Positions 13,357 to 23,548 of a DNA stretch of 32,000 bases are shown here, in pieces. Location: NCBI RefSeq assembly GCF_000189295.2, contig NC_016803.1:1260001-1292000 (forward strand), in the 5' to 3' direction. The translations under genes and the position numbers were made by a program. The DNA comes from Pseudodesulfovibrio mercurii (lineage in GTDB: Bacteria; Desulfobacterota; Desulfovibrionia; Desulfovibrionales; Desulfovibrionaceae). The notes under the pieces are model-generated. The model was not told where the DNA came from and did no database searches. It saw only the letters and a list, made by a program, of their open reading frames with translations. Every line of letters starts with the position of its first letter. Positions within the stretch are counted from its first letter, which is position 1.

Positions 13357-14256
13357 TCAGGCCGAACGCACGGCCCAGACGTGAAACTCGGCCTTCTCCT
13401 TGAAACCCACGCCCACCGCGCCCTTGTGCAGGTAGCAGCAGAACGACCAGGTCGGGTCGTAGCCGCTGTCCGTGGCCGACCAGTAGGCCTCGCGCACGGC
13501 CTCGAAGGGATGGCCCTGGGGCAGGGCCGGGTCGGCCCGAGAACAGTCGGTCAGGGATTCCAGCTCCATGATGGCGGGCAGCCGCCAGGCCAGGCCCGTC
13601 TCCCCGGCCAGCGCAGCCACCGCATGCCGGGCCGCGTCGAAATCGACCATACCCCCGGCCAGATCCGTGTTCCGCCGCCAGATCAGCCCGGTCATGCGGT
13701 CCAGGACCTGGCCGCCGCGCGGCTCGAACCTCGGCTCGGGCCAGGCGCGGCCCAGGCGCAACGCCCCGTCCTGGCCGGTCCCGGCGCAGTCCACGGGACG
13801 GCCGTTCACGTCGAAGCAGCCGGTCTGGCCAGTGGCCCACAGGGTCCCGGAAATACCGCGCACGGGCCAGACCACGGCGTCGTCCGCCTTCCGGCCGAAG
13901 AACATGCGCCCGCCGCTGAACTGGACCCACCAGGCATAGGCGTGGTCGCGGGCCGAGGTGGTGGCGGTCCAGCACTTGCCCGCCCAGACGTGCTCGAAGG
14001 GGTGGCCAGACGGCAGGGCGGGTTCGCGCTCGGCGTGATCCACCAGGGAATACAGCTCCCGGCGGTTGGGCAGCCGCCAGTCGAAAAACCCGAAGCGCTT
14101 GTCGCGGTTCATGGCCGCCACGAAGTCGAAGGCCTCGGGCCAGGACAGCCCGGTCTCGGCGGGCTGGGCCAACCGGGGCCAGACCAGGCCGGTGGCGCGG
14201 TCCTCGACGACCTCGTCCCGGACCGCGAACCGGGGCGGATCGACGGGGCCGGTCAT
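13357..14256 (-). CDS. Tandem DUF1566 (Lcl C-terminal / lectin-like) domain protein without a signal peptide, 299 aa
   Basis: There are two repeats with the DUF1566 hallmarks: GLVW/GLIW, then WRLPNRRELYSL or WRLPAIMELESL, then ...PALP..HPF...YW. The linker is TGQTGCFDVNGRPVDCAGTGQDG. The ATG at 14256 overlaps the upstream gene's TGA (an ATGA overlap). Confidence 0.8.
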   Translation of the reverse strand: MTGPVDPPRFAVRDEVVEDRATGLVWPRLAQPAETGLSWPEAFDFVAAMNRDKRFGFFDWRLPNRRELYSLVDHAEREPALPSGHPFEHVWAGKCWTATTSARDHAYAWWVQFSGGRMFFGRKADDAVVWPVRGISGTLWATGQTGCFDVNGRPVDCAGTGQDGALRLGRAWPEPRFEPRGGQVLDRMTGLIWRRNTDLAGGMVDFDAARHAVAALAGETGLAWRLPAIMELESLTDCSRADPALPQGHPFEAVREAYWSATDSGYDPTWSFCCYLHKGAVGVGFKEKAEFHVWAVRSA

Positions 14257-15611
14257 CCCAGCATGTACCGCACGGCGTAGCCGAAGGACGGATAGGCCCA
14301 CGGCTGGGCCAGGAGGTCCTCGCGGGTCAGGTTGTAGCGGATGGCCAGGCCGAAGATGTTGGCCACCTCCTCGGCGTGGGCGCCCAGGTAGTGCGCCCCG
14401 AGGATGCGCCCGGTGGACCGCTCCACCAGTATCCGGTAGCCCGCGTGGGTCATGCCCAGCCGGGCATGTTCGGCCCACTTGGCCGCGTCGCCCTCGTAGA
14501 CCTTGAAGTCGTACCCCTGCTCACGGGCCTGCTCCTCCAGGAGCCCGGCGCAGGCCAGGACCGGATGGGTGAAGACCGCGCCCGCCGTGCCCCTGAGGTC
14601 GGACCGGGCCGAGCCCTCCTCCAGGATGTTGCGGACCACGGTGTCGGCCTGCAGGGCGGCCACCGGAGTCAGGGAGTGGCCCGGCTCCGCGCAATCCCCG
14701 GCGGCGTAGACCACGGGGTTGGTCGGGCTGCGCATGTACTCGTCCACCCGGATGCCGTGCGGGCCGCTGTCCACGCCCGCCTTGTCCAGGCCGAGGCCGT
14801 CCAGGTCGGGCACCCGGCCCGCCCCGGTCACGGCGGCCGCGGCCACGAACTCCATCTCCACGTCGTCCGGACCGTTGACGACGACGCGCACGCCGTCGTC
14901 AAAGGGCATCACCGCCTTGACCGGGTGATCGACGTGCACGGCAATGCCCTGGTCCTGCATGGCCCGGATCAGCTTGTGGCCCAGGTGCTCGTCGAATCCC
15001 CTGAGCACGCGCCCGCTGCGGTGCAGGATGGTCGCCCTGGCCCCGGCCGCGGCCGCGATGCAGGCGAATTCGAAGGAGATGAACCCGCCGCCGATGAAGA
15101 GCATGGATTCGGGCAGGGTCTCGAGGTCGAGGAACTGGTCGCTGGTCAGAAGCAGTTCCTCGCCGGGGATGCCCAGCGGGCGCGTCACGGCCCCGGCGGC
15201 CACGACGATGTGCCGGGCCGTGAGCGGGCCGAGGTCGTCCACCTCCACCGTGTCCGGGCCGGTGAACCGTGCCCGGCCGTGAAAGGTGGTGATGCCCCGG
15301 CCGTGGAAGGAGTCGAAGACCCTGCCGGCGATGGGATCGATGACCGAGTGCTTGTAGCGCATGAGCGCGGACCAGTCCACGCGCACGGTCCCGGCCACGC
15401 CGTGGGCGGCCATGTCGCGCACCCGGACGACCTCGTGGGCCATGTCGGCCAGGGTCTTCTTGGGCTCGCAGCCCCGCAGGGGGCAGACCCCGCCCCAGCC
15501 GTCCTTCTCCACCACGGCCACGTCCAGCCCGGCGTCGCCGAGCCTGCGGGCGACGATGCCGCCCGCCGGGCCGGAACCGATCACGATCACGTCGAATGTC
15601 TGTCGAGTCAC
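14253..15611 (-). CDS. Class-I pyridine-nucleotide-disulfide oxidoreductase (dihydrolipoamide dehydrogenase / glutathione reductase / MerA superfamily), about 452 aa
   Basis: FAD-binding motif: DVIVIGSGPAGG. Redox-active disulfide: GGVCPLRGCEPKK. NAD(P) fold: FIGGGFISFEFA. A dimerisation-domain-like C-terminus is present. I prefer the GTG at 15611, which has a GGAG 7 nt upstream, over the ATG at 15722 because the latter adds 37 non-homologous residues. Confidence 0.85.
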   Translation of the reverse strand: MTRQTFDVIVIGSGPAGGIVARRLGDAGLDVAVVEKDGWGGVCPLRGCEPKKTLADMAHEVVRVRDMAAHGVAGTVRVDWSALMRYKHSVIDPIAGRVFDSFHGRGITTFHGRARFTGPDTVEVDDLGPLTARHIVVAAGAVTRPLGIPGEELLLTSDQFLDLETLPESMLFIGGGFISFEFACIAAAAGARATILHRSGRVLRGFDEHLGHKLIRAMQDQGIAVHVDHPVKAVMPFDDGVRVVVNGPDDVEMEFVAAAAVTGAGRVPDLDGLGLDKAGVDSGPHGIRVDEYMRSPTNPVVYAAGDCAEPGHSLTPVAALQADTVVRNILEEGSARSDLRGTAGAVFTHPVLACAGLLEEQAREQGYDFKVYEGDAAKWAEHARLGMTHAGYRILVERSTGRILGAHYLGAHAEEVANIFGLAIRYNLTREDLLAQPWAYPSFGYAVRYMLG

Positions 15612-15710
15612 TATTCCGCTCCGGATTCCGTTCCAAATTGCGATTCGGGGAGACGACCGCCCGAGGCGGGCATCTTTCGTCCATCCTCGCACATTCGCCC
15701 GGAATGTAAA

Positions 15711-15744
15711 GGGCGGGACCACCCCGTGCGGAGCGGTCCCGCCC
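15711..15744 (-). terminator. Probable terminator after the SET gene. Stem GGGCGGGACC/GGTCCCGCCC, 14-nt loop, then UUUACAUU on the - strand RNA.
   Basis: A perfect 10-bp GC stem lies 30 nt downstream of the SET stop at 15774. The T-tract is only moderate. Confidence 0.5.
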
Positions 15745-15773
15745 CATGGCGAAAAGATCGAGCGGCGGCGGGA

Positions 15774-16385
15774 CTATGCGTCCGGGCCGCAGACCGGCTC
15801 GGCCAGCCACTTGAGGTTGCGTACCGACGAATAAGGGGCCTTCCCCGTCAGGAAGGCGTCCAGGCGGGCGCGCGGCGCGCCGGTCATCAGGGGCAGCAGG
15901 GGCTGCTCCACCAGGGGGATGCATGCCAGGCTCTCACGGATGCGCACGTCCCACTCGTCGCCGTACACGTCGATGTCGTCCAGGCGCAGGTGCTCGCGGC
16001 AATGCTCGCAGCCGCAGCAGATGGCATAGGGCTCCTGGATGTTGAGCAGCCCGTACTCGGTGGTCAGCTCCTCCCCGGCCGCGATGTCGCGGACCGCGAT
16101 CTCCAGGTCGTAGTCGGTCATCATGGTGCTCGGCAGGCAGTTGTGGTTCATGTACCGGGCGTGGTCCCAGCTGAGGACCAGGTTGCCGCACTTGTCGTGG
16201 TACATGTAGGTCTCCATGGCCGCGCGCTGGGGCTCGGGCAGGGCAAGAAAGGCCTCCGGGCTCATGGTCATGTCGAAGCGGTCGCGCACGACCACGATGG
16301 TCCCCCGGGGGATGGGCCGGGTGGCATACACGCCCACGCCGATGGCCGGGTCCCCGGACAGGACCCTGGTATGGGGATGGATCAC
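15774..16385 (-). CDS. SET-domain protein (putative lysine/peptide methyltransferase), 203 aa
   Basis: All SET signatures are present: N-SET-like GVGVYATRPIPRGTIV, RYMNHNCLPS (NHxC), GEELTTEYG (ELxxxY), and a post-SET-like Cys cluster, CCGCEHC. The GTG start at 16385 has a GAGGA 6 nt upstream and lies 11 nt after the upstream gene's stop. Confidence 0.8.
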   Translation of the reverse strand: MIHPHTRVLSGDPAIGVGVYATRPIPRGTIVVVRDRFDMTMSPEAFLALPEPQRAAMETYMYHDKCGNLVLSWDHARYMNHNCLPSTMMTDYDLEIAVRDIAAGEELTTEYGLLNIQEPYAICCGCEHCREHLRLDDIDVYGDEWDVRIRESLACIPLVEQPLLPLMTGAPRARLDAFLTGKAPYSSVRNLKWLAEPVCGPDA

Positions 16386-16396
16386 TTGCGTCCTCG

Positions 16397-18400
16397 CTAG
16401 TAGATGTAGCGCACCTGGTGCCGTTCGGCCTCGATGCGGTTGTAGATGGAGCGCATGATGCGTTCGTAAAGCTCGTCGCCCAGGACCAGATCCTCGATGC
16501 CCGCGTCCACGTTGGGGTTGTCGTTGACCTCAATGACGTAGGCCTTGCCGCCCATGTCCTTGAGGTCCACCCCGTAGAAGCCGTTGCCGATGAGGGACGA
16601 GGCCTGGACCGCGGCCTTGAGGATGTGGGCCGGGGCCTCTTCCACGGGCAGCGTCTCGGACCGGCCGCTGAAATCCTCGCGGTCCTGGTCGTCGCTCTCC
16701 TGCCAGTTGTAGATTTGCCAGTGGTTCTTGGCCATGTAGTACCGGCAGGCGAAGAGCGGCTTGTTGTCGAGCAGCCCCACGCGCCAGTCGAAGGCCGAGA
16801 CCAGGAACTCCTGGGCGATGACCAGGTCCGTGTGCTTGAACATATCGACCAGCTTGTCGCCCAGTTCCTCCACCGAGGACACCCGGAACACGCCCAGGGA
16901 GAAGGAGCTCTCGGGCAGCTTCAGGACCAGGGGCAGGGGCAGGGTCCGCAGGAAGGCGGGCGTGCACTCCTTGCGCGTCAGGTGCCAGCCGCGCGGCTGG
17001 TTCACCCCGGCGTGGGCCAGCCGCTCCTGGAGGTAAACCTTGTTGGAGCAGAGCATGATGGACCAGGGGTCGTCCACGACCACCAGCCCTTCGGTGTAGG
17101 CGTGGCGGGACATGGCGTAGGTGTGGTTGTCCATGGCCGTGGTCTCGCGGATGAACAGGGCGTCGAACTCGCAGATGCGCCGGTGGTCCGCCTTGGTGAT
17201 GAACTCCACGAAGAAGCCCACCTTTTCCGCGGCCTTGCGAAACTTCTCCAGGGCCATGGGGCTGGACGGCGGCGTGGGTTCGGCCGCGTCGGCCAGGATG
17301 GCCAGATCGTACTGGTAGCTCTTGAGCCGGGGCCGGTTGTAGCGCTTGCGCAGGCAGAAGGCCTCCAGGGCCGTTCGCAGCAGGTCCGGATGGAGCCGGG
17401 CCACCTGTTTGAGGTGCAGGAGCTTGACCCTGCGGAACTTCCAGCCGTCCTCCTGGCGCTCCATGGTGATGGTGAAAAACGGGACCGCGAACAGGGAAAA
17501 AAGTTTGCGGGCCAGCTCCGCCCGGCACGGGTCCGGGGTGCGGCCGAGGATGATGGTCAGCTCCAGGACGGCCCCCTTGTCCGGCAGGGGCCGGGGATGG
17601 AGGGACTCCTTGATCTCGTCGAGCAGGCTCTGGGCCACCAGGGGCGTGGTCACGTCCTTGACGGTCATGACCGAGGGGGTCACGCGGTGGTTGCGGGCCG
17701 TGGCCAGCAGGGACACGTAGTAACCCATGGAGTGGGTCTTGTACGAGGTGCACAGGTTGAGGACGTGGAACCGGTTGGACCCGGCGTAGTTGGTGTCCGC
17801 CAGGTAGTCCGTGGCCGAAACGAACTGGACGCCGGGGCAGCAGTCCCGGACCCGGCCCGGCTCGTCCACCACGATGACCACGCTCTCGGGCGAGCCGTCG
17901 CGGTTCGCCGGAGACAGGACCATGCGCACGGCGGGCTCGTTCGGCCCATAGTAGTCCGGCAGGGTGCGCACCGGCTCGAAGCCGAACTTGCGGTACCAGT
18001 TGACCAGCTTGGGGTTGTTCATGTCCGCTTCCAGGGTGACGCGCTCGTACCCGTGGCTGGCGGCGAACTCGACGATGTGCCGGACCAGGGCCTCGCCCAG
18101 GCCGAGCATGCGGTGCTCCCTGAGCACGGCCAGGGAGTAGACGCGCAGGGAGCGCTTGTACTGGAAGACCACGGCGCACCCGGCCGGGACCGGCTTCTTG
18201 CGCCGGACCTTGCCCTCGATGACCAAGGCGGTCTGGGTGGGACTCAGTATGCTGTGCCGCAGGCTGGCCCTTGAACTGCGCCGGTTCTCGCTGAATCCGG
18301 TCTGTTCGCAGGCCTCGAATAAAGGCAGGTCGTCCAGGGTCGCCGGACGGACGGACGAGGACGTAAAGGAGACGGAGGACGTCTCGCACGCAAGGCTCAT
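16397..18400 (-). CDS. Fusion protein: N-terminal GNAT acetyltransferase, RLAN-like middle domain, and RimK-type ATP-grasp ligase (Ngg-like architecture), 667 aa
   Basis: GNAT motif A: HRMLGLGEALVRHIV, plus NWYRKFGF. RLAN-like segment: LNLCTSYKTHSMGYYVSLLATARNHRVTPSVMTVKD. The ATP-grasp C-terminus contains VLKLPESSFSLGV and YVIEVNDNPNVD. I chose the start at MSLACE (ATG at 18400) because a GGGAGG lies 5 nt upstream. The track ORF's extra 133 N-terminal residues are Arg/Pro-rich junk. Confidence 0.85.
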   Translation of the reverse strand: MSLACETSSVSFTSSSVRPATLDDLPLFEACEQTGFSENRRSSRASLRHSILSPTQTALVIEGKVRRKKPVPAGCAVVFQYKRSLRVYSLAVLREHRMLGLGEALVRHIVEFAASHGYERVTLEADMNNPKLVNWYRKFGFEPVRTLPDYYGPNEPAVRMVLSPANRDGSPESVVIVVDEPGRVRDCCPGVQFVSATDYLADTNYAGSNRFHVLNLCTSYKTHSMGYYVSLLATARNHRVTPSVMTVKDVTTPLVAQSLLDEIKESLHPRPLPDKGAVLELTIILGRTPDPCRAELARKLFSLFAVPFFTITMERQEDGWKFRRVKLLHLKQVARLHPDLLRTALEAFCLRKRYNRPRLKSYQYDLAILADAAEPTPPSSPMALEKFRKAAEKVGFFVEFITKADHRRICEFDALFIRETTAMDNHTYAMSRHAYTEGLVVVDDPWSIMLCSNKVYLQERLAHAGVNQPRGWHLTRKECTPAFLRTLPLPLVLKLPESSFSLGVFRVSSVEELGDKLVDMFKHTDLVIAQEFLVSAFDWRVGLLDNKPLFACRYYMAKNHWQIYNWQESDDQDREDFSGRSETLPVEEAPAHILKAAVQASSLIGNGFYGVDLKDMGGKAYVIEVNDNPNVDAGIEDLVLGDELYERIMRSIYNRIEAERHQVRYIY

Positions 18401-18609
18401 GAAGCCTCCCGAAGTTGCAGGACACCCGGGCCGCATGACGCGCCCGAGAATGGACATCCCATATACCGGGTCCTGCGGCAGGTAAACACAAATCGCGGGG
18501 GTGCGCCGGACCTTTTTTGCGGCACGGATCAGGCCCCGCCGAAGCCCCCTCCCCGGCCTCCGAGGGCAGCCAGGAATGCGTCGGGCGCACAGCGCTCCGG
18601 GCGGACCGC

Positions 18610-18792
18610 GAAGCGGTCGCGGAGCCGGGCCACCCGGCACGGCAGAAGGCCGCAGGAACGCAGCAGTTTCGCGCGGGTGAACAGCTCGGCCACCGGGCCG
18701 TCGAAGCGCAGCCGCAAGGCCTCCAGGCAGACGCCGCGCTCGCAGTTTTCGGCCACGAAGTCCATGTCGTGGCCGATGAGCACCACGGCCCA
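18610..18792 (-). pseudogene. C-terminal remnant of an ABC-transporter ATPase (H-loop to C-terminus). The Walker A, signature and Walker B regions are missing.
   Basis: The translation VVLIGHDMDFVAENCERGVCLEALRLRFDGPVAELFTRAKLLRSCGLLPCRVARL matches the generic end of ABC/ECF ATPases (..tHDmd.v.e.cdr..vl..G.i.fdGp..elf....ll...gl.pp.v.rl). Upstream of it the sequence switches abruptly to AT-rich non-coding DNA. Confidence 0.45.
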
Positions 18793-19243
18793 GCGGCATC
18801 GGGACGGCCAGACAGGAGCCGGAAATCCGAACAACGGAAAACGGCGCTTTACGCAGCCCGGCCAGGGGACAATTCCCTCCGCCATCGGCAGAGAAATTTC
18901 CCGTTATATTTTGATCCGGGTAAAATACTCCATAAAATCAAACTGATAATCATTCTCAATCATTTGTTTGAACGGTGAAAAACCCATTTTCGTCAAAATA
19001 GTTTTCCACATGCTCATGTGTAAACAATTGCTTGATGCGGCTGGGGAATGACGAAATCAGCACTTTCAACAGTGGTCTCCACCCGGGCCGAAGCGGGGTT
19101 TTATCTCATGTTTTACACAATTTAACCATCAAGTATTACAGCCTTTATTTTGGTACCATTCCCCACACGCAGTTCGTATATTTTAATAGACACCGATACA
19201 ACACAACGACTCGATATATTTCATACCCTGATGGGAGGACATC

Positions 19244-22200
19244 ATGACCGACACCAGCACCACCCAACGCCCGGAAATCCAGGTTTCGCTGCCTGGTGCG
19301 GGCCGGTCCGCGTCGTATCGACTGACGGCGGACGCAACGGTACGGTTCGCCTTTGACCTCGCGGAAGCGGAATTCATCGGCAATGGCAACAACCTTGAAA
19401 TCATTGTGGAAGGCGGCGGCCGGATCATCCTCCAGGACTATCTGGTCCTGGCCGAGGCCGACACCCTTCCCGTGTTTGAGATGCTCGACGGCCAGCAGGT
19501 GCCGGGCGGGGTGTATCTTTTCGCTTTTGAAAGCGACCAGCCCGTGACCCAGCAGGACATCGAAACCGCGGCGGGCGGGGCCACCTCCGGCTCCGGCGCG
19601 GGTGAATACAACGATGACCCCGGCGCGCTGTTCGACGGCCTGAACGCCCTGGGCCCGCAGGGCGACGCTTACGGCACCCACCTCTTCCCCACCCTGGAAC
19701 CCATCACCGTCGGCCTGCCCGAGACGGAACCAGTTCCCCCGGTGGCCGTGGACGACGTGAACCAGATCATCGAGAGCGGCTGGAACCGCGAGGGCGAGAA
19801 CGGCCACTACGAGGGCCAGGAATACTACGGCTCGGCCACCGGCAACCTGCTGCTCAACGACTATGACGGCGACAACATCGACTACCCCGAGACGGGCGGC
19901 GTCCAGACCGAGCTGGTCGTCAGTTCCATCGACTTCCCCGGCCCGGACTTCAACGGCGACAATCCCGGCCCGGAACCCGTCACCGACACCGGCACCCAGG
20001 TCAACGGCCAATACGGCACCCTGACCGTGTTCGCCGACGGTTCCTATGAATATTTATTGGACGAGACCCTGGCCGATCCCCTGCGCCAGGGGCAGGAAGT
20101 GCTTGAGCAGTTCCGGTACACGGCCATGGACCCGGACGGCAACGAGAGCAACACCGCCACCCTGACCATCACCGTGGTCGGGACCAACGACGCGCCCGAC
20201 GCCCTGGACGACGTTTCCCCCGACGTCGTCGAGCAGGGCACCGAGGTGGCCGGCGTCGCGGTCGTGACCGGCAACGTGCTGCACAACGACTCCGACGTGG
20301 ACAACGTGGGGTACGAGGATCTGGACCCGACCTACAGGGATCAGTTGCCCACCGACCCCGACAACCTTGTCGAGCTGGGCGTGACCAGCATCTACAGCTA
20401 TGGCACCGGCCAATTCGACAGCACCCCGGACGGGGACGGCAACCTCACGGTTGACGGCGAATACGGCACCCTGGTCATCAACGCCGACGGCTCCTATCAG
20501 TACACCCTGGACCAGGCCGAGGCCGACCCGCTGAACATCGGCGACGCCCCGGACGAACACTTCGGCTACGCCATGTGGGACGGCGAGAAGTACGATTACG
20601 CCTACCTGCGCATCCCGGTGATCGGCTCCAACGACGCGCCCGTGGCCGAGGTCGACGTGAACGCCTTCACCGAGGCCGTGGACGACGCCACCGCCCACGC
20701 CGTGTCCGGCAACGTGCTCGAAAACGATGCGGACGTAGACAACGTGGACTTCGGCGATCCCGGCACCCCCGAACTGACCGTGGAGGCCATCGCCTACTCC
20801 GGCGAGGGCACCCCGCCCGTGCGGGTCAGCGACCTGTACGAGGCCGACCACATCGTGGAAGGCCAGTACGGCACCCTGTACCTGAACGACGACGGTTCCT
20901 ACGTCTACGTCGAAGACAAGAACGCCACCGATCCGCTGAACACCGACGACGCGGCCGTGACCGACGTCTTCACCTACGAGGTCAGCGACAACCAGGCGGG
21001 CGGCGCGCTGAGCGACACCGCCACCCTGACCATCACCATCACGGGCGCGAACGATTCGCCCGTGGCCACGGTTGACGTGAACTCGTTCACCGAGGCCGTG
21101 GACGACGCGCTGCCCGGCGACGTGTCCGGCAACATCCTGTCCAACGACACGGACATCGACAACACCGGGTTGGAACTGTCCGTGGCCGACATCGCCTACT
21201 CCGGCGCGGGCTCCCCGCCCGTGCGCGTCAGCGACGCCTACACGGCGGACCACGTCATCGAGGGCGAGTACGGCACCCTGTACCTGAACAACGACGGCAG
21301 CTACCACTACGTCGAGGACAAGACCGCCACCGATCCGCTGAACACGGACGATGCGGCCGTGACCGACGTCTTCACCTACGAGGTCAGCGACAACCAGGCG
21401 GGCGGCGCGCTGAGCGATACCGCCACCCTGACCATCACCATCGGCGGGGCCAACGATTCGCCCGTGGCCACGGTTGACGTGAACTCGTTCACCGAGGCCG
21501 TGGACGACGCGCTGCCCGGCGACGTGTCCGGCAACATCCTGTCCAACGACACGGACATCGACAACACCGGGTTGGAGCTGTCCGTGGCCGACATCGCCTA
21601 CTCCGGCGCGGGCTCCCCGCCCGTGCGCGTCAGCGACGCCTACACGGCGGACCACGTCATCGAGGGCGAGTACGGAACCCTGTACCTGAACGACGACGGC
21701 AGCTACCACTACGTCGAGGACAAGACGGCCACCGATCCGCTGAACAGCGATGACGCGGCCGTGACCGATGTCTTCACCTACGAGGTCAGCGACAACCAGG
21801 CGGGCGGCGCGCTGAGCGACACCGCCACCCTGACCATCACCATCGGCGGGGCCAACGATTCGCCCGTGGCCACGGTTGACGTGAACTCGTTCACCGAGGC
21901 CGTGGACGACGCGGCCCCCGGCGACGTGTCCGGCAAGATCCTGGCCAATGACACCGACATCGACAACACCGGGCTCGAACTGTCCGTGACCGACATCGCC
22001 TACTCCGGCGCGGGCACCCCGCCCGTGCGGGTCAGCGACGCCTACACGGCGGACCACATCGTGGAAGGCCAGTACGGCACCCTGTACCTGAACAACGACG
22101 GCAGCTACCACTACGTCGAGGACAAGGATGTGACCGACCCGCTGAACGTGGGCGACGATCCGGTGAGCGACGTGTTCACCTACGTGGTCAGCGACAACCA

Positions 22201-23548
22201 GGCGGGCGGCGCATTGACCGACACCGCGACTCTGACCATCACCATCGACCCGGCCAACGACTCGCCCGTGGCGGTGCATGACGGCTCGCACGAGATCTTC
22301 ATCACCAACACCGTGGAAACGGTCATCGACGACTGGAGCGGCGTGTCCGGCTCGGTCATCTACGGTCCGGGCTACACCGTGACCGCCGAGGCTTTCGACG
22401 CCGAGAACAACCCGATCAGCGACGTCCAGTTCACCACCTGGGGCAACGACCAGCACCTGGGCATCTACACCAACGGCACCGGCGACGACCAGAAGGTCGA
22501 TGACCTGGACGGCAAGGAGCAGATCACCTTCGAGTTCGACGATCCGCAGAGCTCCTTCAGCATCGAGTTCATCGCCCAGGGCAACAACCACGTCAACGCC
22601 TGGGTCTATCCCATCGGCGGCGGCGTTCCGGTCATGTACGAAAACGTGGGCAACGCGGTATTCATCACCCCCGGCTTCGACTTCGACACCATCGTCTTCA
22701 TCCCGGACGGCTCCTTCGGCATGGAGAGCCTGACCACGGTCACCGGCGGCGAAAACCTGCTCATGGGCACGGCCGAAGGCAATGTCCTGGCCAACGACTA
22801 CGACGTGGACAACGTGACCTTCGACGACGCGGCGGCCGGCGGCGACCCGAGCCTCATGGAGCTGTCCGTGTCCGACATCGACTCCACCAACGTGCCCGGC
22901 AACGCCCCCAGCGCGGGCAGCGACCTGGACGGCAACTACTGGATCGTGGACGGCGAGTTCGGTTCGCTGAAGATCTACGAGACCGGCGAATGGTCGTACA
23001 CCCCGACCGAACAGACGGACGGCGAGGGCGGCTGGCAGAACCTGGACCACAGCGCGACCGACGTCTTCGAGTACACCGTGTCCGACGGCTCGGGCGGGAC
23101 CGACACCGCCTCCATCGAGGTCTCCCTGAACGTGAACACCACGGGCGTGACCGGCGGCTCCGGCACCCTGTCGGGCACCGACGGCAACGACGTCCTCTTC
23201 GCTGCGGACGGCGACACCGTGTCCTCCGGGTCCGGCCACGACGCCATCGTCATCGACCCGGTCTACCTGGGCAGCGACGCGGGCACGGTCAACGTCACGG
23301 ACTTCAGCGACGGCGACCGGCTGGTGCTCGGCAACATGGAGGGGGCGAACGTGACCATCACCTCGGACAGCAACGACGTCAATCTGGTGTTCTCCGACAT
23401 TGACGGCAGCGACGACATCACGGTCAACCTGCTGGGGGTTGCCCCGGTGCACGACGCTGTGGATCAGACGGTGGAAATCACCACCAGCGACGATCTGAAC
23501 CAGCTCATCCAGACGATCATCGACTCCGGCAACGACAGCATCCTCTAG
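19244..23548 (+). CDS. Large secreted repeat adhesin (LapA-like): N-terminal retention-module-like domain, 7 VCBS/cadherin-like modules, one inserted unique domain, RTX motif and a type-I-secretion C-terminal target domain; 1434 aa
   Basis: VCBS-type motifs occur once per module: (V/I)xG(Q/E)YGTL(T/Y)(V/L)xxDGSYxY. Ca-binding-like N(D/N)xDxDN and TLTITIxGxNDxP junctions are present. There is one RTX nonapeptide, GTDGNDVLF. A T1SS-type tail follows (VTDFSDGDRLVL...NLLGV...). A GGGAGGA Shine-Dalgarno precedes the ATG. Confidence 0.9.
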   Translation: MTDTSTTQRPEIQVSLPGAGRSASYRLTADATVRFAFDLAEAEFIGNGNNLEIIVEGGGRIILQDYLVLAEADTLPVFEMLDGQQVPGGVYLFAFESDQPVTQQDIETAAGGATSGSGAGEYNDDPGALFDGLNALGPQGDAYGTHLFPTLEPITVGLPETEPVPPVAVDDVNQIIESGWNREGENGHYEGQEYYGSATGNLLLNDYDGDNIDYPETGGVQTELVVSSIDFPGPDFNGDNPGPEPVTDTGTQVNGQYGTLTVFADGSYEYLLDETLADPLRQGQEVLEQFRYTAMDPDGNESNTATLTITVVGTNDAPDALDDVSPDVVEQGTEVAGVAVVTGNVLHNDSDVDNVGYEDLDPTYRDQLPTDPDNLVELGVTSIYSYGTGQFDSTPDGDGNLTVDGEYGTLVINADGSYQYTLDQAEADPLNIGDAPDEHFGYAMWDGEKYDYAYLRIPVIGSNDAPVAEVDVNAFTEAVDDATAHAVSGNVLENDADVDNVDFGDPGTPELTVEAIAYSGEGTPPVRVSDLYEADHIVEGQYGTLYLNDDGSYVYVEDKNATDPLNTDDAAVTDVFTYEVSDNQAGGALSDTATLTITITGANDSPVATVDVNSFTEAVDDALPGDVSGNILSNDTDIDNTGLELSVADIAYSGAGSPPVRVSDAYTADHVIEGEYGTLYLNNDGSYHYVEDKTATDPLNTDDAAVTDVFTYEVSDNQAGGALSDTATLTITIGGANDSPVATVDVNSFTEAVDDALPGDVSGNILSNDTDIDNTGLELSVADIAYSGAGSPPVRVSDAYTADHVIEGEYGTLYLNDDGSYHYVEDKTATDPLNSDDAAVTDVFTYEVSDNQAGGALSDTATLTITIGGANDSPVATVDVNSFTEAVDDAAPGDVSGKILANDTDIDNTGLELSVTDIAYSGAGTPPVRVSDAYTADHIVEGQYGTLYLNNDGSYHYVEDKDVTDPLNVGDDPVSDVFTYVVSDNQAGGALTDTATLTITIDPANDSPVAVHDGSHEIFITNTVETVIDDWSGVSGSVIYGPGYTVTAEAFDAENNPISDVQFTTWGNDQHLGIYTNGTGDDQKVDDLDGKEQITFEFDDPQSSFSIEFIAQGNNHVNAWVYPIGGGVPVMYENVGNAVFITPGFDFDTIVFIPDGSFGMESLTTVTGGENLLMGTAEGNVLANDYDVDNVTFDDAAAGGDPSLMELSVSDIDSTNVPGNAPSAGSDLDGNYWIVDGEFGSLKIYETGEWSYTPTEQTDGEGGWQNLDHSATDVFEYTVSDGSGGTDTASIEVSLNVNTTGVTGGSGTLSGTDGNDVLFAADGDTVSSGSGHDAIVIDPVYLGSDAGTVNVTDFSDGDRLVLGNMEGANVTITSDSNDVNLVFSDIDGSDDITVNLLGVAPVHDAVDQTVEITTSDDLNQLIQTIIDSGNDSIL
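19565..19576 (+). other. TAAG di-alanine motif at adhesin residues 108-111. Candidate LapG-type periplasmic protease cleavage site.
   Basis: The sequence reads DIE-TAAG-GATSGSG, immediately after an N-terminal globular region of about 100 aa. P. fluorescens LapA is cleaved at a TAAG motif at about the same residue number. The similarity rests on motif and position only. Confidence 0.4.
20630..22255 (+). repeat. Intragenic tandem array. One 420-bp diverged unit (20630-21049) plus three 402-bp units (21050-21451, 21452-21853, 21854-22255).
   Basis: The landmark AACGATTCGCCCGTGGCC recurs at 21050, 21452 and 21854, an exact 402-bp period. Units 2 and 3 differ at about 10 of 402 positions by my eye alignment. 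Shadow ORFs on the - strand (20974, 21376, 21778) repeat with the same period. Confidence 0.9.

Follow-up and report, generated by a model that had tools for sequence, protein, structure and literature searches.

A facultative, cross-phylum pairing of a GNAT–RLAN–ATP-grasp fusion gene with a SET-domain methyltransferase gene in Pseudodesulfovibrio mercurii and other bacteria

Two adjacent genes on the reverse strand of a 32,000-nucleotide stretch of Pseudodesulfovibrio mercurii DNA (NC_016803.1, positions 1,260,001 to 1,292,000; hereafter the window, in whose own numbering all coordinates without a locus handle are given) encode a protein of 667 amino acids, in which a GNAT acetyltransferase, an RLAN domain and an ATP-grasp ligase are fused (16397..18400), and a SET-domain methyltransferase of 203 amino acids (15774..16385). 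Comparison of the neighbourhoods of both genes in other bacteria revealed that their linkage is real, extends across phyla, is more than chance and is facultative both ways. The components belong to known families and their combination is an uncharacterised variant. Tentatively, and with somewhat less than an even chance of being right, we read the pair by analogy as a self-contained two-gene cassette that builds one small amino-acid-derived product, namely an N-acetyl-peptide metabolite resembling those of Ngg or N-acetyl-aspartyl-glutamate (NAAG) synthesis that is methylated by the SET enzyme.

The fusion gene, identified from the list of open reading frames (ORFs), Pfam and NCBIfam, runs with its stop codon included from an ATG at 18400 to a TAG at 16399-16397. 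Its reading frame stays open to 18799 and the extension past 18400 is Arg/Pro-rich; the ATG at 18400 was preferred to a start at 18799 because the homologues are 650–667 amino acids long and have a matching start. The SET gene, whose coordinates likewise include the stop codon, begins with a GTG at 16385 that is fixed as the start by the sequence MIHP found at residue 1 in every SET homologue. Direct reading of the spacer between the fusion stop and this GTG (16386..16396, reverse strand) gave CGAGGACGCAA, 11 nt in which a Shine-Dalgarno GAGGA lies at 16395-16391, 5 nt ahead of the GTG. An earlier note on this DNA, made from the letters alone, had described this 11-nt distance and the separate GAGGA of the SET gene, both of which were confirmed, and the operon-like coupling is real. 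The same note had placed a GC hairpin at 15711-15744, and a GC-rich hairpin with a 16-bp stem was indeed found at 15710..15745 on the reverse strand, 28 nt past the SET stop codon; the 86-nt stretch around it (15690-15775) folds with −44.8 kcal/mol (z = −3.16 relative to shuffled sequences). The hairpin has no U-tract and was not called by a consensus terminator scan because just UUU follows the stem, and it is the probable transcript end of the pair. The gene located beyond the hairpin position differs in every other genome compared.

At the linked loci the SET gene is placed on the same strand as the fusion gene and 10–36 nt downstream of it, a short spacing counted in nine loci besides the window. 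Such pairs were detected in Limihaloglobus sulfuriphilus (Planctomycetota; L081), in one metagenome-assembled genome (MAG) of Desulfuromonadaceae (L082 and L083) and one of Desulfobacteraceae (L084), in an ENA contig whose fusion gene is split by a frameshift (L167), in P. piezophilus (L170) and in two Maridesulfovibrio genomes (L171, L173). Verrucomicrobiales and Akkermansiaceae MAGs (L014, L023) also carry the linked pair, with the GNAT encoded by a separate upstream gene; GNAT and RLAN-ligase are separate adjacent genes in these two loci and in L019 and L063, and fused in the window and most taxa. The genes around the linked pair differ at every locus, even inside one genus, and clustering of the neighbours yielded no third gene conserved with the pair. 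On contigs of at least 5 kb, at least 32 of the 62 SET matches share the contig with a fusion gene, a lower bound made up of 29 matches whose contig has exactly the same length as that of a fusion match, together with the window and the entries P0208 and P0222, which were known to be linked.

The association is dispensable on both sides. No SET gene was present beside the fusion gene in any of 13 loci from Bacteroidota, Balneolaceae, Acholeplasmataceae and Izemoplasmataceae (L001-L013). The type strain M. salexigens DSM 2638 (L172:7001-8992) possesses a fusion gene without a downstream SET gene, the next gene being TraT-like and on the other strand, and thus within Maridesulfovibrio the SET gene is either dispensable or located elsewhere in the genome. 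In a Kiritimatiellales MAG (L019, 5986-11114) and a Verrucomicrobia MAG (L020), where GNAT and RLAN-RimK are encoded separately, the genes next in line are not SET but lysA, dapA and a CBS-domain gene; this context may reflect ordinary synteny or may hint at a link with lysine. As to the SET genes, none of the 27 full-length homologues among the listed metagenome matches (35–54% identity) had a fusion gene or a conserved neighbour; the scan, seeded with the SET alignment, listed 80 loci, a sample and not a census, and none of these had the fusion. Three outgroups that were looked up (P0214, P0227, P0237) were unlinked as well, in keeping with the earlier statement that bacterial SET genes are usually orphans, which holds for this family of approximately 200-residue proteins. 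A search of PLSDB located the pair on no plasmid, only GNAT-less relatives and orphan SET genes. The neighbourhood survey that the earlier note had proposed therefore gave a divided answer: the SET/ATP-grasp linkage is kept across genera and phyla amid unrelated flanks, but many fusion genes have no SET gene and most SET genes have no fusion gene.

A full-library profile search resolved the SET family into 226 clusters at 50% identity (E ≤ 1e-30), nearly all of them of about 200 residues, and the linked SET clade collapses into approximately two of these. In a neighbour-joining tree calculated without support values, the linked SETs form one core clade, inside which the unlinked P0214 and L086 are nested, and the linked Verrucomicrobial SETs are placed apart from it; this pattern suggests that the genes either became associated long ago, with later losses, or were recruited independently. 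Several Priestia megaterium plasmids (L174:5001-5606) carry orphan SET genes of the same family (∼36% identity) beside an IS3 transposase and hypothetical genes. A few members have double the usual length or more, namely P0271 (395 residues), P0283 (374) and P0383 (566); in two of them the match falls into two stretches, which hints at a tandem duplication or a fusion.

Profile searches of the fusion protein, which shares 92% identity with its homologue in P. hydrargyri, supported all three of the parts that had been proposed for it from the sequence. On the reverse strand, the GNAT domain occupies 17912..18361 (residues ∼14-163, with the acetyl-CoA motif R97-x-x-G100-x-G102), the RLAN domain 17375..17812 (residues 197-342, PF14401) and a complete ATP-grasp carboxylate-amine ligase with its three subdomains 16421..17311 (residues ∼364-660, with K494, Q530-E531, D612 and E624-x-N626). 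In Pfam, PF00583 (GNAT) scored 50 bits over residues 54-141 (cutoff 20.7), PF14401 (RLAN) 135.2 bits over residues 197-342 (cutoff 25), directly N-terminal to the ATP-grasp, and PF07478 (ATP-grasp) 37 bits over residues 470-629 (cutoff 24), while PF08443 (RimK) with 20.2 bits remained narrowly below its cutoff of 21, as did PF02655 relative to its own. An AlphaFold2 model of the protein (mean predicted local distance difference test, pLDDT, 81) contained the complete three-subdomain ATP-grasp at residues ∼364-660, for which Foldseek returned target-normalised template modelling (TM) scores of 0.79–0.81 with LysX/ArgX, 0.72–0.77 with RimK and 0.66–0.76 with the D-Ala-D-Ala ligases (Ddl). The closest solved sequences to the GNAT domain are the N-alpha-acetyltransferases Naa50, ARD1 and RimI. 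Among 39 homologues, G100 and G102 of the acetyl-CoA motif are nearly invariant, K494, Q530, D612, E624 and N626 are invariant and E531 is nearly so. The RLAN domain holds the most conserved non-catalytic stretch of the protein, with an invariant block in these homologues that comprises N215, G226-Y-Y-x-S230, A235-R236, P242 and D249. By its domain composition (PF14401 plus ATP-grasp) the protein is assigned to the RLAN-containing RimK-like group.

The SET protein, 100% identical to a P. mercurii entry annotated as ‘nuclear protein SET’, matched PF00856 with 42.9 bits over residues 16-112 (cutoff 22.4). This SET core (16050..16340, reverse strand) includes G16-x-G18, N80-H81 and Y111, and the residues G16, G18, N80, H81 and Y111 of the SAM- and active-site motifs GxG, NH and ELxxxY are invariant among 48 homologues. 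The three hallmark motifs quoted in the earlier note were all located, RYMNHNC at residues 77-83, GEELTTEYG at 104-112 and the post-SET-like cysteine cluster C123-C124-G-C126-E-H-C129 at 123-129 (15999..16019, reverse strand). Of the Cys4 set C83, C124, C126 and C129, the alignment of the 48-sequence clade keeps the first and the last without exception and the middle two to at least 90%; by analogy with eukaryotic post-SET domains, C83 of the NHxC motif and the cluster probably form a Zn site. The cysteine cluster is absent from the Verrucomicrobial linked SETs. The AlphaFold2 model (mean pLDDT 92.9) was matched by Foldseek with a probability of 1.00 to ASH1L, NSD, MLL and SETD2 (TM-score ∼0.5, root-mean-square deviation, rmsd, ∼3 Å). 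Beyond the stretch of approximately 145 residues aligned to the solved SET structures lies a family-specific C-terminal helical extension (residues 137-191; 15813..15977, reverse strand), modelled at high pLDDT as helices 137-153, 169-179 and 188-191, in the region of which W145-D146 and Q161-x-L163 are conserved in the SET family. Judged from their residues, the GNAT, ATP-grasp and SET domains all look catalytically competent.

A scan of one genome per species indicated at least 587 loci that encode relatives of the fusion protein; no Desulfovibrionaceae were among the matches listed, and the loci of that family were reached by exact-protein look-up. Most of the best 80 of these matches have no GNAT. 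Such GNAT-less RLAN-RimK proteins, annotated as ‘RimK family protein’, are the closest sequence relatives of the fusion, with 40–44% identity over the RLAN and ATP-grasp (residues ∼175-660), and they share this RLAN-ligase core while belonging to an operon of their own without GNAT and without SET. The conserved order of that operon is C39-like cysteine peptidase, RLAN-RimK, GCS2 carboxylate-amine ligase and N-formylglutamate-amidohydrolase-family enzyme, and among the best 80 loci the peptidase was found in 41, the GCS2 ligase in 51 and the amidohydrolase-family enzyme in 35. The four-gene operon (L018-L080, e.g. L018:5216-9369) occurs in Bacteroidota, Gammaproteobacteria, Nitrosomonas/Thiobacillus, Planctomycetota, Legionella and others; a search for a characterisation of it found none, and the scanned ORFs of the window contained none of its three partners. 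A GNAT-less RLAN-RimK is also encoded on the P. aeruginosa plasmid pZYPA1927 (L175:4860-6449), where it is annotated as ‘RimK family alpha-L-glutamate ligase’ and is surrounded by a Glu/Asp ABC transporter, pagP, a short-chain dehydrogenase/reductase and a large pyridoxal phosphate-dependent aminotransferase, without the GCS2 and amidohydrolase-family partners.

If the pair is a cassette for a small molecule, the GNAT domain would first N-acetylate an amino acid from acetyl-CoA. The RimK/LysX-type ATP-grasp would then turn a carboxylate into an acyl-phosphate and ligate it to another amino acid at the amine of the latter, to give an N-acetyl-(oligo)peptide, with the RLAN domain helping to hold the substrate. 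By the example of other enzymes of the RimK family, L-glutamate is the likeliest partner in this ligation. Finally, the co-translated SET enzyme would use S-adenosylmethionine (SAM) to methylate a nucleophilic side chain of this product or of a precursor amino acid, for example the epsilon-amine of lysine, and the product would probably be a compatible-solute-like metabolite of marine or saline anaerobes. We infer that the substrate is a small molecule, which amino acids take part, in what order the steps follow and what physiological role they serve. GNAT and ligase are either fused or adjacent, as is usual for enzymes that act in succession on the same substrate, and all three catalytic sites are conserved. 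The flanks of the pair differ in every genome, and no gene for a substrate protein or a precursor peptide travels with it. As the fusion works alone in many lineages, the methylation would be an optional tailoring step. In the sister RLAN-RimK operon an N-acyl-Glu amidohydrolase-type enzyme takes the place of the GNAT, which suggests that the RLAN-ligase core serves the chemistry of N-acyl amino acids or small peptides, and by analogy this points to small-molecule chemistry for the fusion as well. The methionine methyltransferase BurB, considered below, shows that SET enzymes are not confined to proteins and so lends the metabolite reading a precedent, again by analogy. Ngg and the animal route through NAT8L and RIMKLA/RIMKLB, both also described below, are its precedents for the GNAT and ligase steps. 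The host range speaks for a solute-like product as well: by a simple tally, Pseudodesulfovibrio, Maridesulfovibrio, Limihaloglobus, Kiritimatiellia, Coraliomargarita, Rubritalea, Balneolaceae, Prolixibacteraceae and the other hosts of the fusion gene are mostly marine, saline or sediment taxa. Osmolyte-related genes near the fusion gene, listed further on, point the same way in a few genomes.

Several points weigh against the cassette reading. The osmolyte-gene contexts are single cases and not conserved. The nearest relatives of all three domains (Naa50/ARD1/RimI, LysX/ArgX/RimK and ASH1L/NSD/MLL) act on proteins, and the SET protein superimposes on ASH1L, NSD and MLL with the rmsd of ∼3 Å given above, compared with 8 Å and 16% identity for BurB. 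Finally, the SET family is mostly orphan: unrelated bacteria, soil bacteria among them, have it with no fusion gene, as do the Priestia plasmids, so the usual substrate of the family cannot be the product of the fusion. The more specific claim, that the pair makes a new methylated N-acetyl-peptide (or amino-acid conjugate) solute in marine or saline anaerobes, its SET enzyme representing a second small-molecule kind after BurB and the related methionine S-methyltransferases (MSMT) and the first that tailors the product of a GNAT/ATP-grasp peptide synthase, is in our estimation rather doubtful.

The osmolyte-related contexts are as follows. In one Maridesulfovibrio sp. (L171:6653-8795) the pair is directly followed, in convergent orientation, by ablB (TIGR03827, 301.7 bits) and the lysine 2,3-aminomutase gene ablA (TIGR03820, 778 bits), which are genes of the N-epsilon-acetyl-beta-lysine osmolyte, and upstream of the same pair lie genes for an arginine decarboxylase and a carboxynorspermidine synthase. 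Genes for MscS-type channels and corA were found within ∼6 kb of the fusion gene in P. piezophilus and M. salexigens. The P. piezophilus locus has in addition a small GNAT gene upstream and a gene for a GNAT-nitrilase-fold fusion downstream. The ablA/ablB context and the lysA/dapA context of L019 and L020 were treated as anecdotes, as they are confined to those loci.

The foremost alternative, which we hold to be possible if somewhat unlikely, is that the two proteins modify the tail of a cellular protein: the fusion would N-alpha-acetylate it and add glutamate or other amino acids to its carboxylate, the SET enzyme would methylate a lysine of the same target, possibly a ribosomal protein pair such as bS18/bS6, on which RimI and RimK act, and the RLAN domain would serve target recognition. 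It is consistent with the protein-modifying activity of the characterised nearest relatives of GNAT, ATP-grasp and SET, with the match of the SET protein to lysine methyltransferases including an invariant channel Tyr111 and the post-SET cysteine cluster, with the match of the GNAT to the RimI model TIGR01575 and with the TM-scores of 0.72–0.81 for LysX/ArgX/RimK. A housekeeping target would need no linkage to its modifying enzymes (rimK itself is not known to be linked to rpsF), which would explain why SET and fusion genes each occur alone, and the neighbour-joining tree has two separate SET lineages in which linkage either arose or was kept. However, no candidate substrate was identified, and the RimK and RimI models remained far under their cutoffs (53.9 versus 143.4 bits and 36.9 versus 86.4 bits, respectively). 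In addition, sequence similarity among GNATs predicts the acceptor poorly, the sister RLAN-RimK operon looks metabolic, and there is no obvious kinetic logic in fusing an enzyme that acts on an N-terminus to one that acts on a C-terminus.

Alternatively, the two genes might be co-transcribed neighbours without a shared substrate, the SET enzyme methylating its own family-wide target, be it protein or metabolite, and hitch-hiking or being co-regulated in some lineages. The overwhelmingly stand-alone occurrence of the SET family (all 27 listed loci and the three outgroups), the frequent occurrence of the fusion alone and the nesting of the unlinked P0214 and L086 within the linked clade are as expected from such independence. 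We nevertheless consider it distinctly unlikely, as gene order, strand and the 10–36 nt spacing persist across at least three phyla while all flanks change, the linkage is observed with both fused and split GNAT-ligases and in two regions of the SET tree, and at least 32 of the 62 SET matches on the longer contigs share the contig with a fusion gene. A cluster for a ribosomally made peptide with post-translational modifications (RiPP) of the graspetide or microviridin-like kind, in which a ribosomal precursor peptide, cross-linked or lengthened by the ATP-grasp, would then be N-acetylated and methylated, is very improbable: a GNAT and RimK-related ATP-grasp ligases do occur together in microviridin clusters and the 843 nt upstream of the fusion gene (18401-19243) hold no called gene, but the small ORFs in that region are Arg/Pro-rich frames of GC-rich DNA, the upstream gaps are just ∼236–250 nt in L082 and L084, neither a transporter nor a leader peptidase is present, and no conserved small ORF was found beside the pair, whose flanks differ in all loci, no dedicated precursor search having been made.

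Upstream of the pair a single sigma-70-like promoter match, TTTACA-18-TATTTT (18995..19024, reverse strand), lies approximately 600 nt before the start codon; it is of low confidence, the consensus scan having returned 2 matches against 0.5 expected. An Rfam search of 15000-19500 matched no family and hence no riboswitch or other known RNA upstream. The approximately 500 nt ahead of the fusion start (18401-18900) show a coding-like GC richness without a Pfam or Rfam match, and within them an ORF on the reverse strand (18529-18885) contains the string VVLIGHDMDFV, which resembles the C-terminus of an ABC-transporter ATPase; this region may be what is left of a gene, or else a long 5' leader. 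Divergent from the pair, 19244-23548 on the forward strand encodes a protein of 1434 amino acids that has Big_9 domains together with bacterial cadherin-like repeats, five at the least, and whose long internal repeats are nearly identical. Downstream of the pair, 13357-15722 on the reverse strand encodes an Lcl_C-domain protein and a pyridine-nucleotide-disulfide oxidoreductase that resembles lipoamide dehydrogenase and glutathione reductase and scored under every equivalog cutoff; the longest ORFs of these two overlap by 226 nt, indicating that the upstream starts are over-extended. PADLOC returned no meaningful match to anti-phage defence.

Histone methylation in eukaryotes has SET enzymes at its core, and little is known of what they do in bacteria. 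A SET gene tied to an acetyltransferase-ligase thus offers a concrete handle on one bacterial SET function, in a species whose strain ND132 is a genetically tractable model of mercury methylation. If a metabolite is made, the pair would represent a new way to small peptides or osmolytes that needs no ribosome, and SET chemistry on small molecules would reach further than BurB; if a protein is modified, bacteria would possess a compact equivalent of the acetyl, glutamyl and methyl marks on eukaryotic protein tails. Either way, a testable role is provided for the uncharacterised RLAN-RimK family.

Comparison with known systems places each part of the pair near a characterised enzyme. As in the earlier note, whose author knew of none, no characterised SET/ATP-grasp or SET/RimK pairing turned up in the searchable literature, outside which the amidoligase survey of Iyer et al. 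(2009) lies. For the SET protein, the relevant precedent is BurB, a SET-domain enzyme that methylates free methionine (PMC12542666). BurB and MSMT are small stand-alone bacterial SET methionine S-methyltransferases of a methylation pathway of dimethylsulfoniopropionate (DMSP), encoded in a metabolic gene cluster (PMC12542666). BurB was recovered both by the SET sequence profile (E = 5e-5) and by Foldseek (E = 6e-7, likewise with a probability of 1.00). Membership of the SET protein in the BurB/MSMT group was rejected on the basis of 16% identity, an rmsd of 8 Å and a profile match limited to residues 80-133. With 172 residues BurB is also shorter than the 203-residue SET protein with its C-terminal helical extension (residues 137-191), and the latter is closer to the lysine methyltransferases ASH1L, NSD and MLL than to BurB.

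For the ligase, the fusion protein has the ATP-grasp subfamily fold of RimK, the bS6 poly-glutamyl ligase, and of LysX/ArgX, the LysW-carrier ligases, together with their conserved K, D and E-x-N residues for ATP and Mg. It differs from both by 360 additional N-terminal residues comprising GNAT and RLAN, and membership in canonical RimK was rejected because the RimK family model TIGR00768 scored 53.9 bits (E = 1.7e-14), under its cutoff of 143.4. The rimI model TIGR01575 gave 36.9 bits with the GNAT (cutoff 86.4). The rpsF gene of the host lies outside the window. In animals, N-acetyl-Asp is produced by the GNAT NAT8L and ligated to Glu by RIMKLA and RIMKLB, two enzymes of the RimK family. Compared by description only, these enzymes carry out a GNAT step followed by RimK-family ligation to glutamate, the two chemistries that are fused here, but they are separate, eukaryotic and without a methylation step, and they are not known to contain an RLAN domain.

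The closest parallel in architecture is Ngg, which N-acetylates a glutamine and couples it to another to form N-acetylglutaminylglutamine (PMC8070244). Like the fusion protein, Ngg combines a GNAT with a peptide-bond ligase in one polypeptide, and its product is an N-acetyl dipeptide made without a ribosome or a non-ribosomal peptide synthetase (PMC8070244). The Ngg equivalog model TIGR03103 matched the fusion with only 29.7 bits relative to a cutoff of 569. This match is limited to GNAT residues 87-147; homology stops at the GNAT and the model covers none of the RLAN segment. The partner genes also differ, AsnO amidotransferase for Ngg, whose asnO-ngg operon serves the osmolyte NAGGN, and SET for the fusion. 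The scanned ORFs across the window contained no Asn_synthase or amidotransferase (GATase) domain, bearing out the previous observation that an asnO-like gene is missing there, and no asnO-type gene adjoins the pair in nine other loci. Membership in the Ngg pathway of N-acetylglutaminylglutamine amide synthesis was rejected on the TIGR03103 score and the absence of asnO from the window. Thus, of the Ngg-like character formerly ascribed to the fusion, the joining of a GNAT and a peptide ligase in one polypeptide stands, whereas descent from Ngg does not. As judged from these profile comparisons, the fusion protein is shown not to be an Ngg orthologue and resembles it in architecture and logic only, and in that sense Ngg is the best analogy for how the fusion protein may work.

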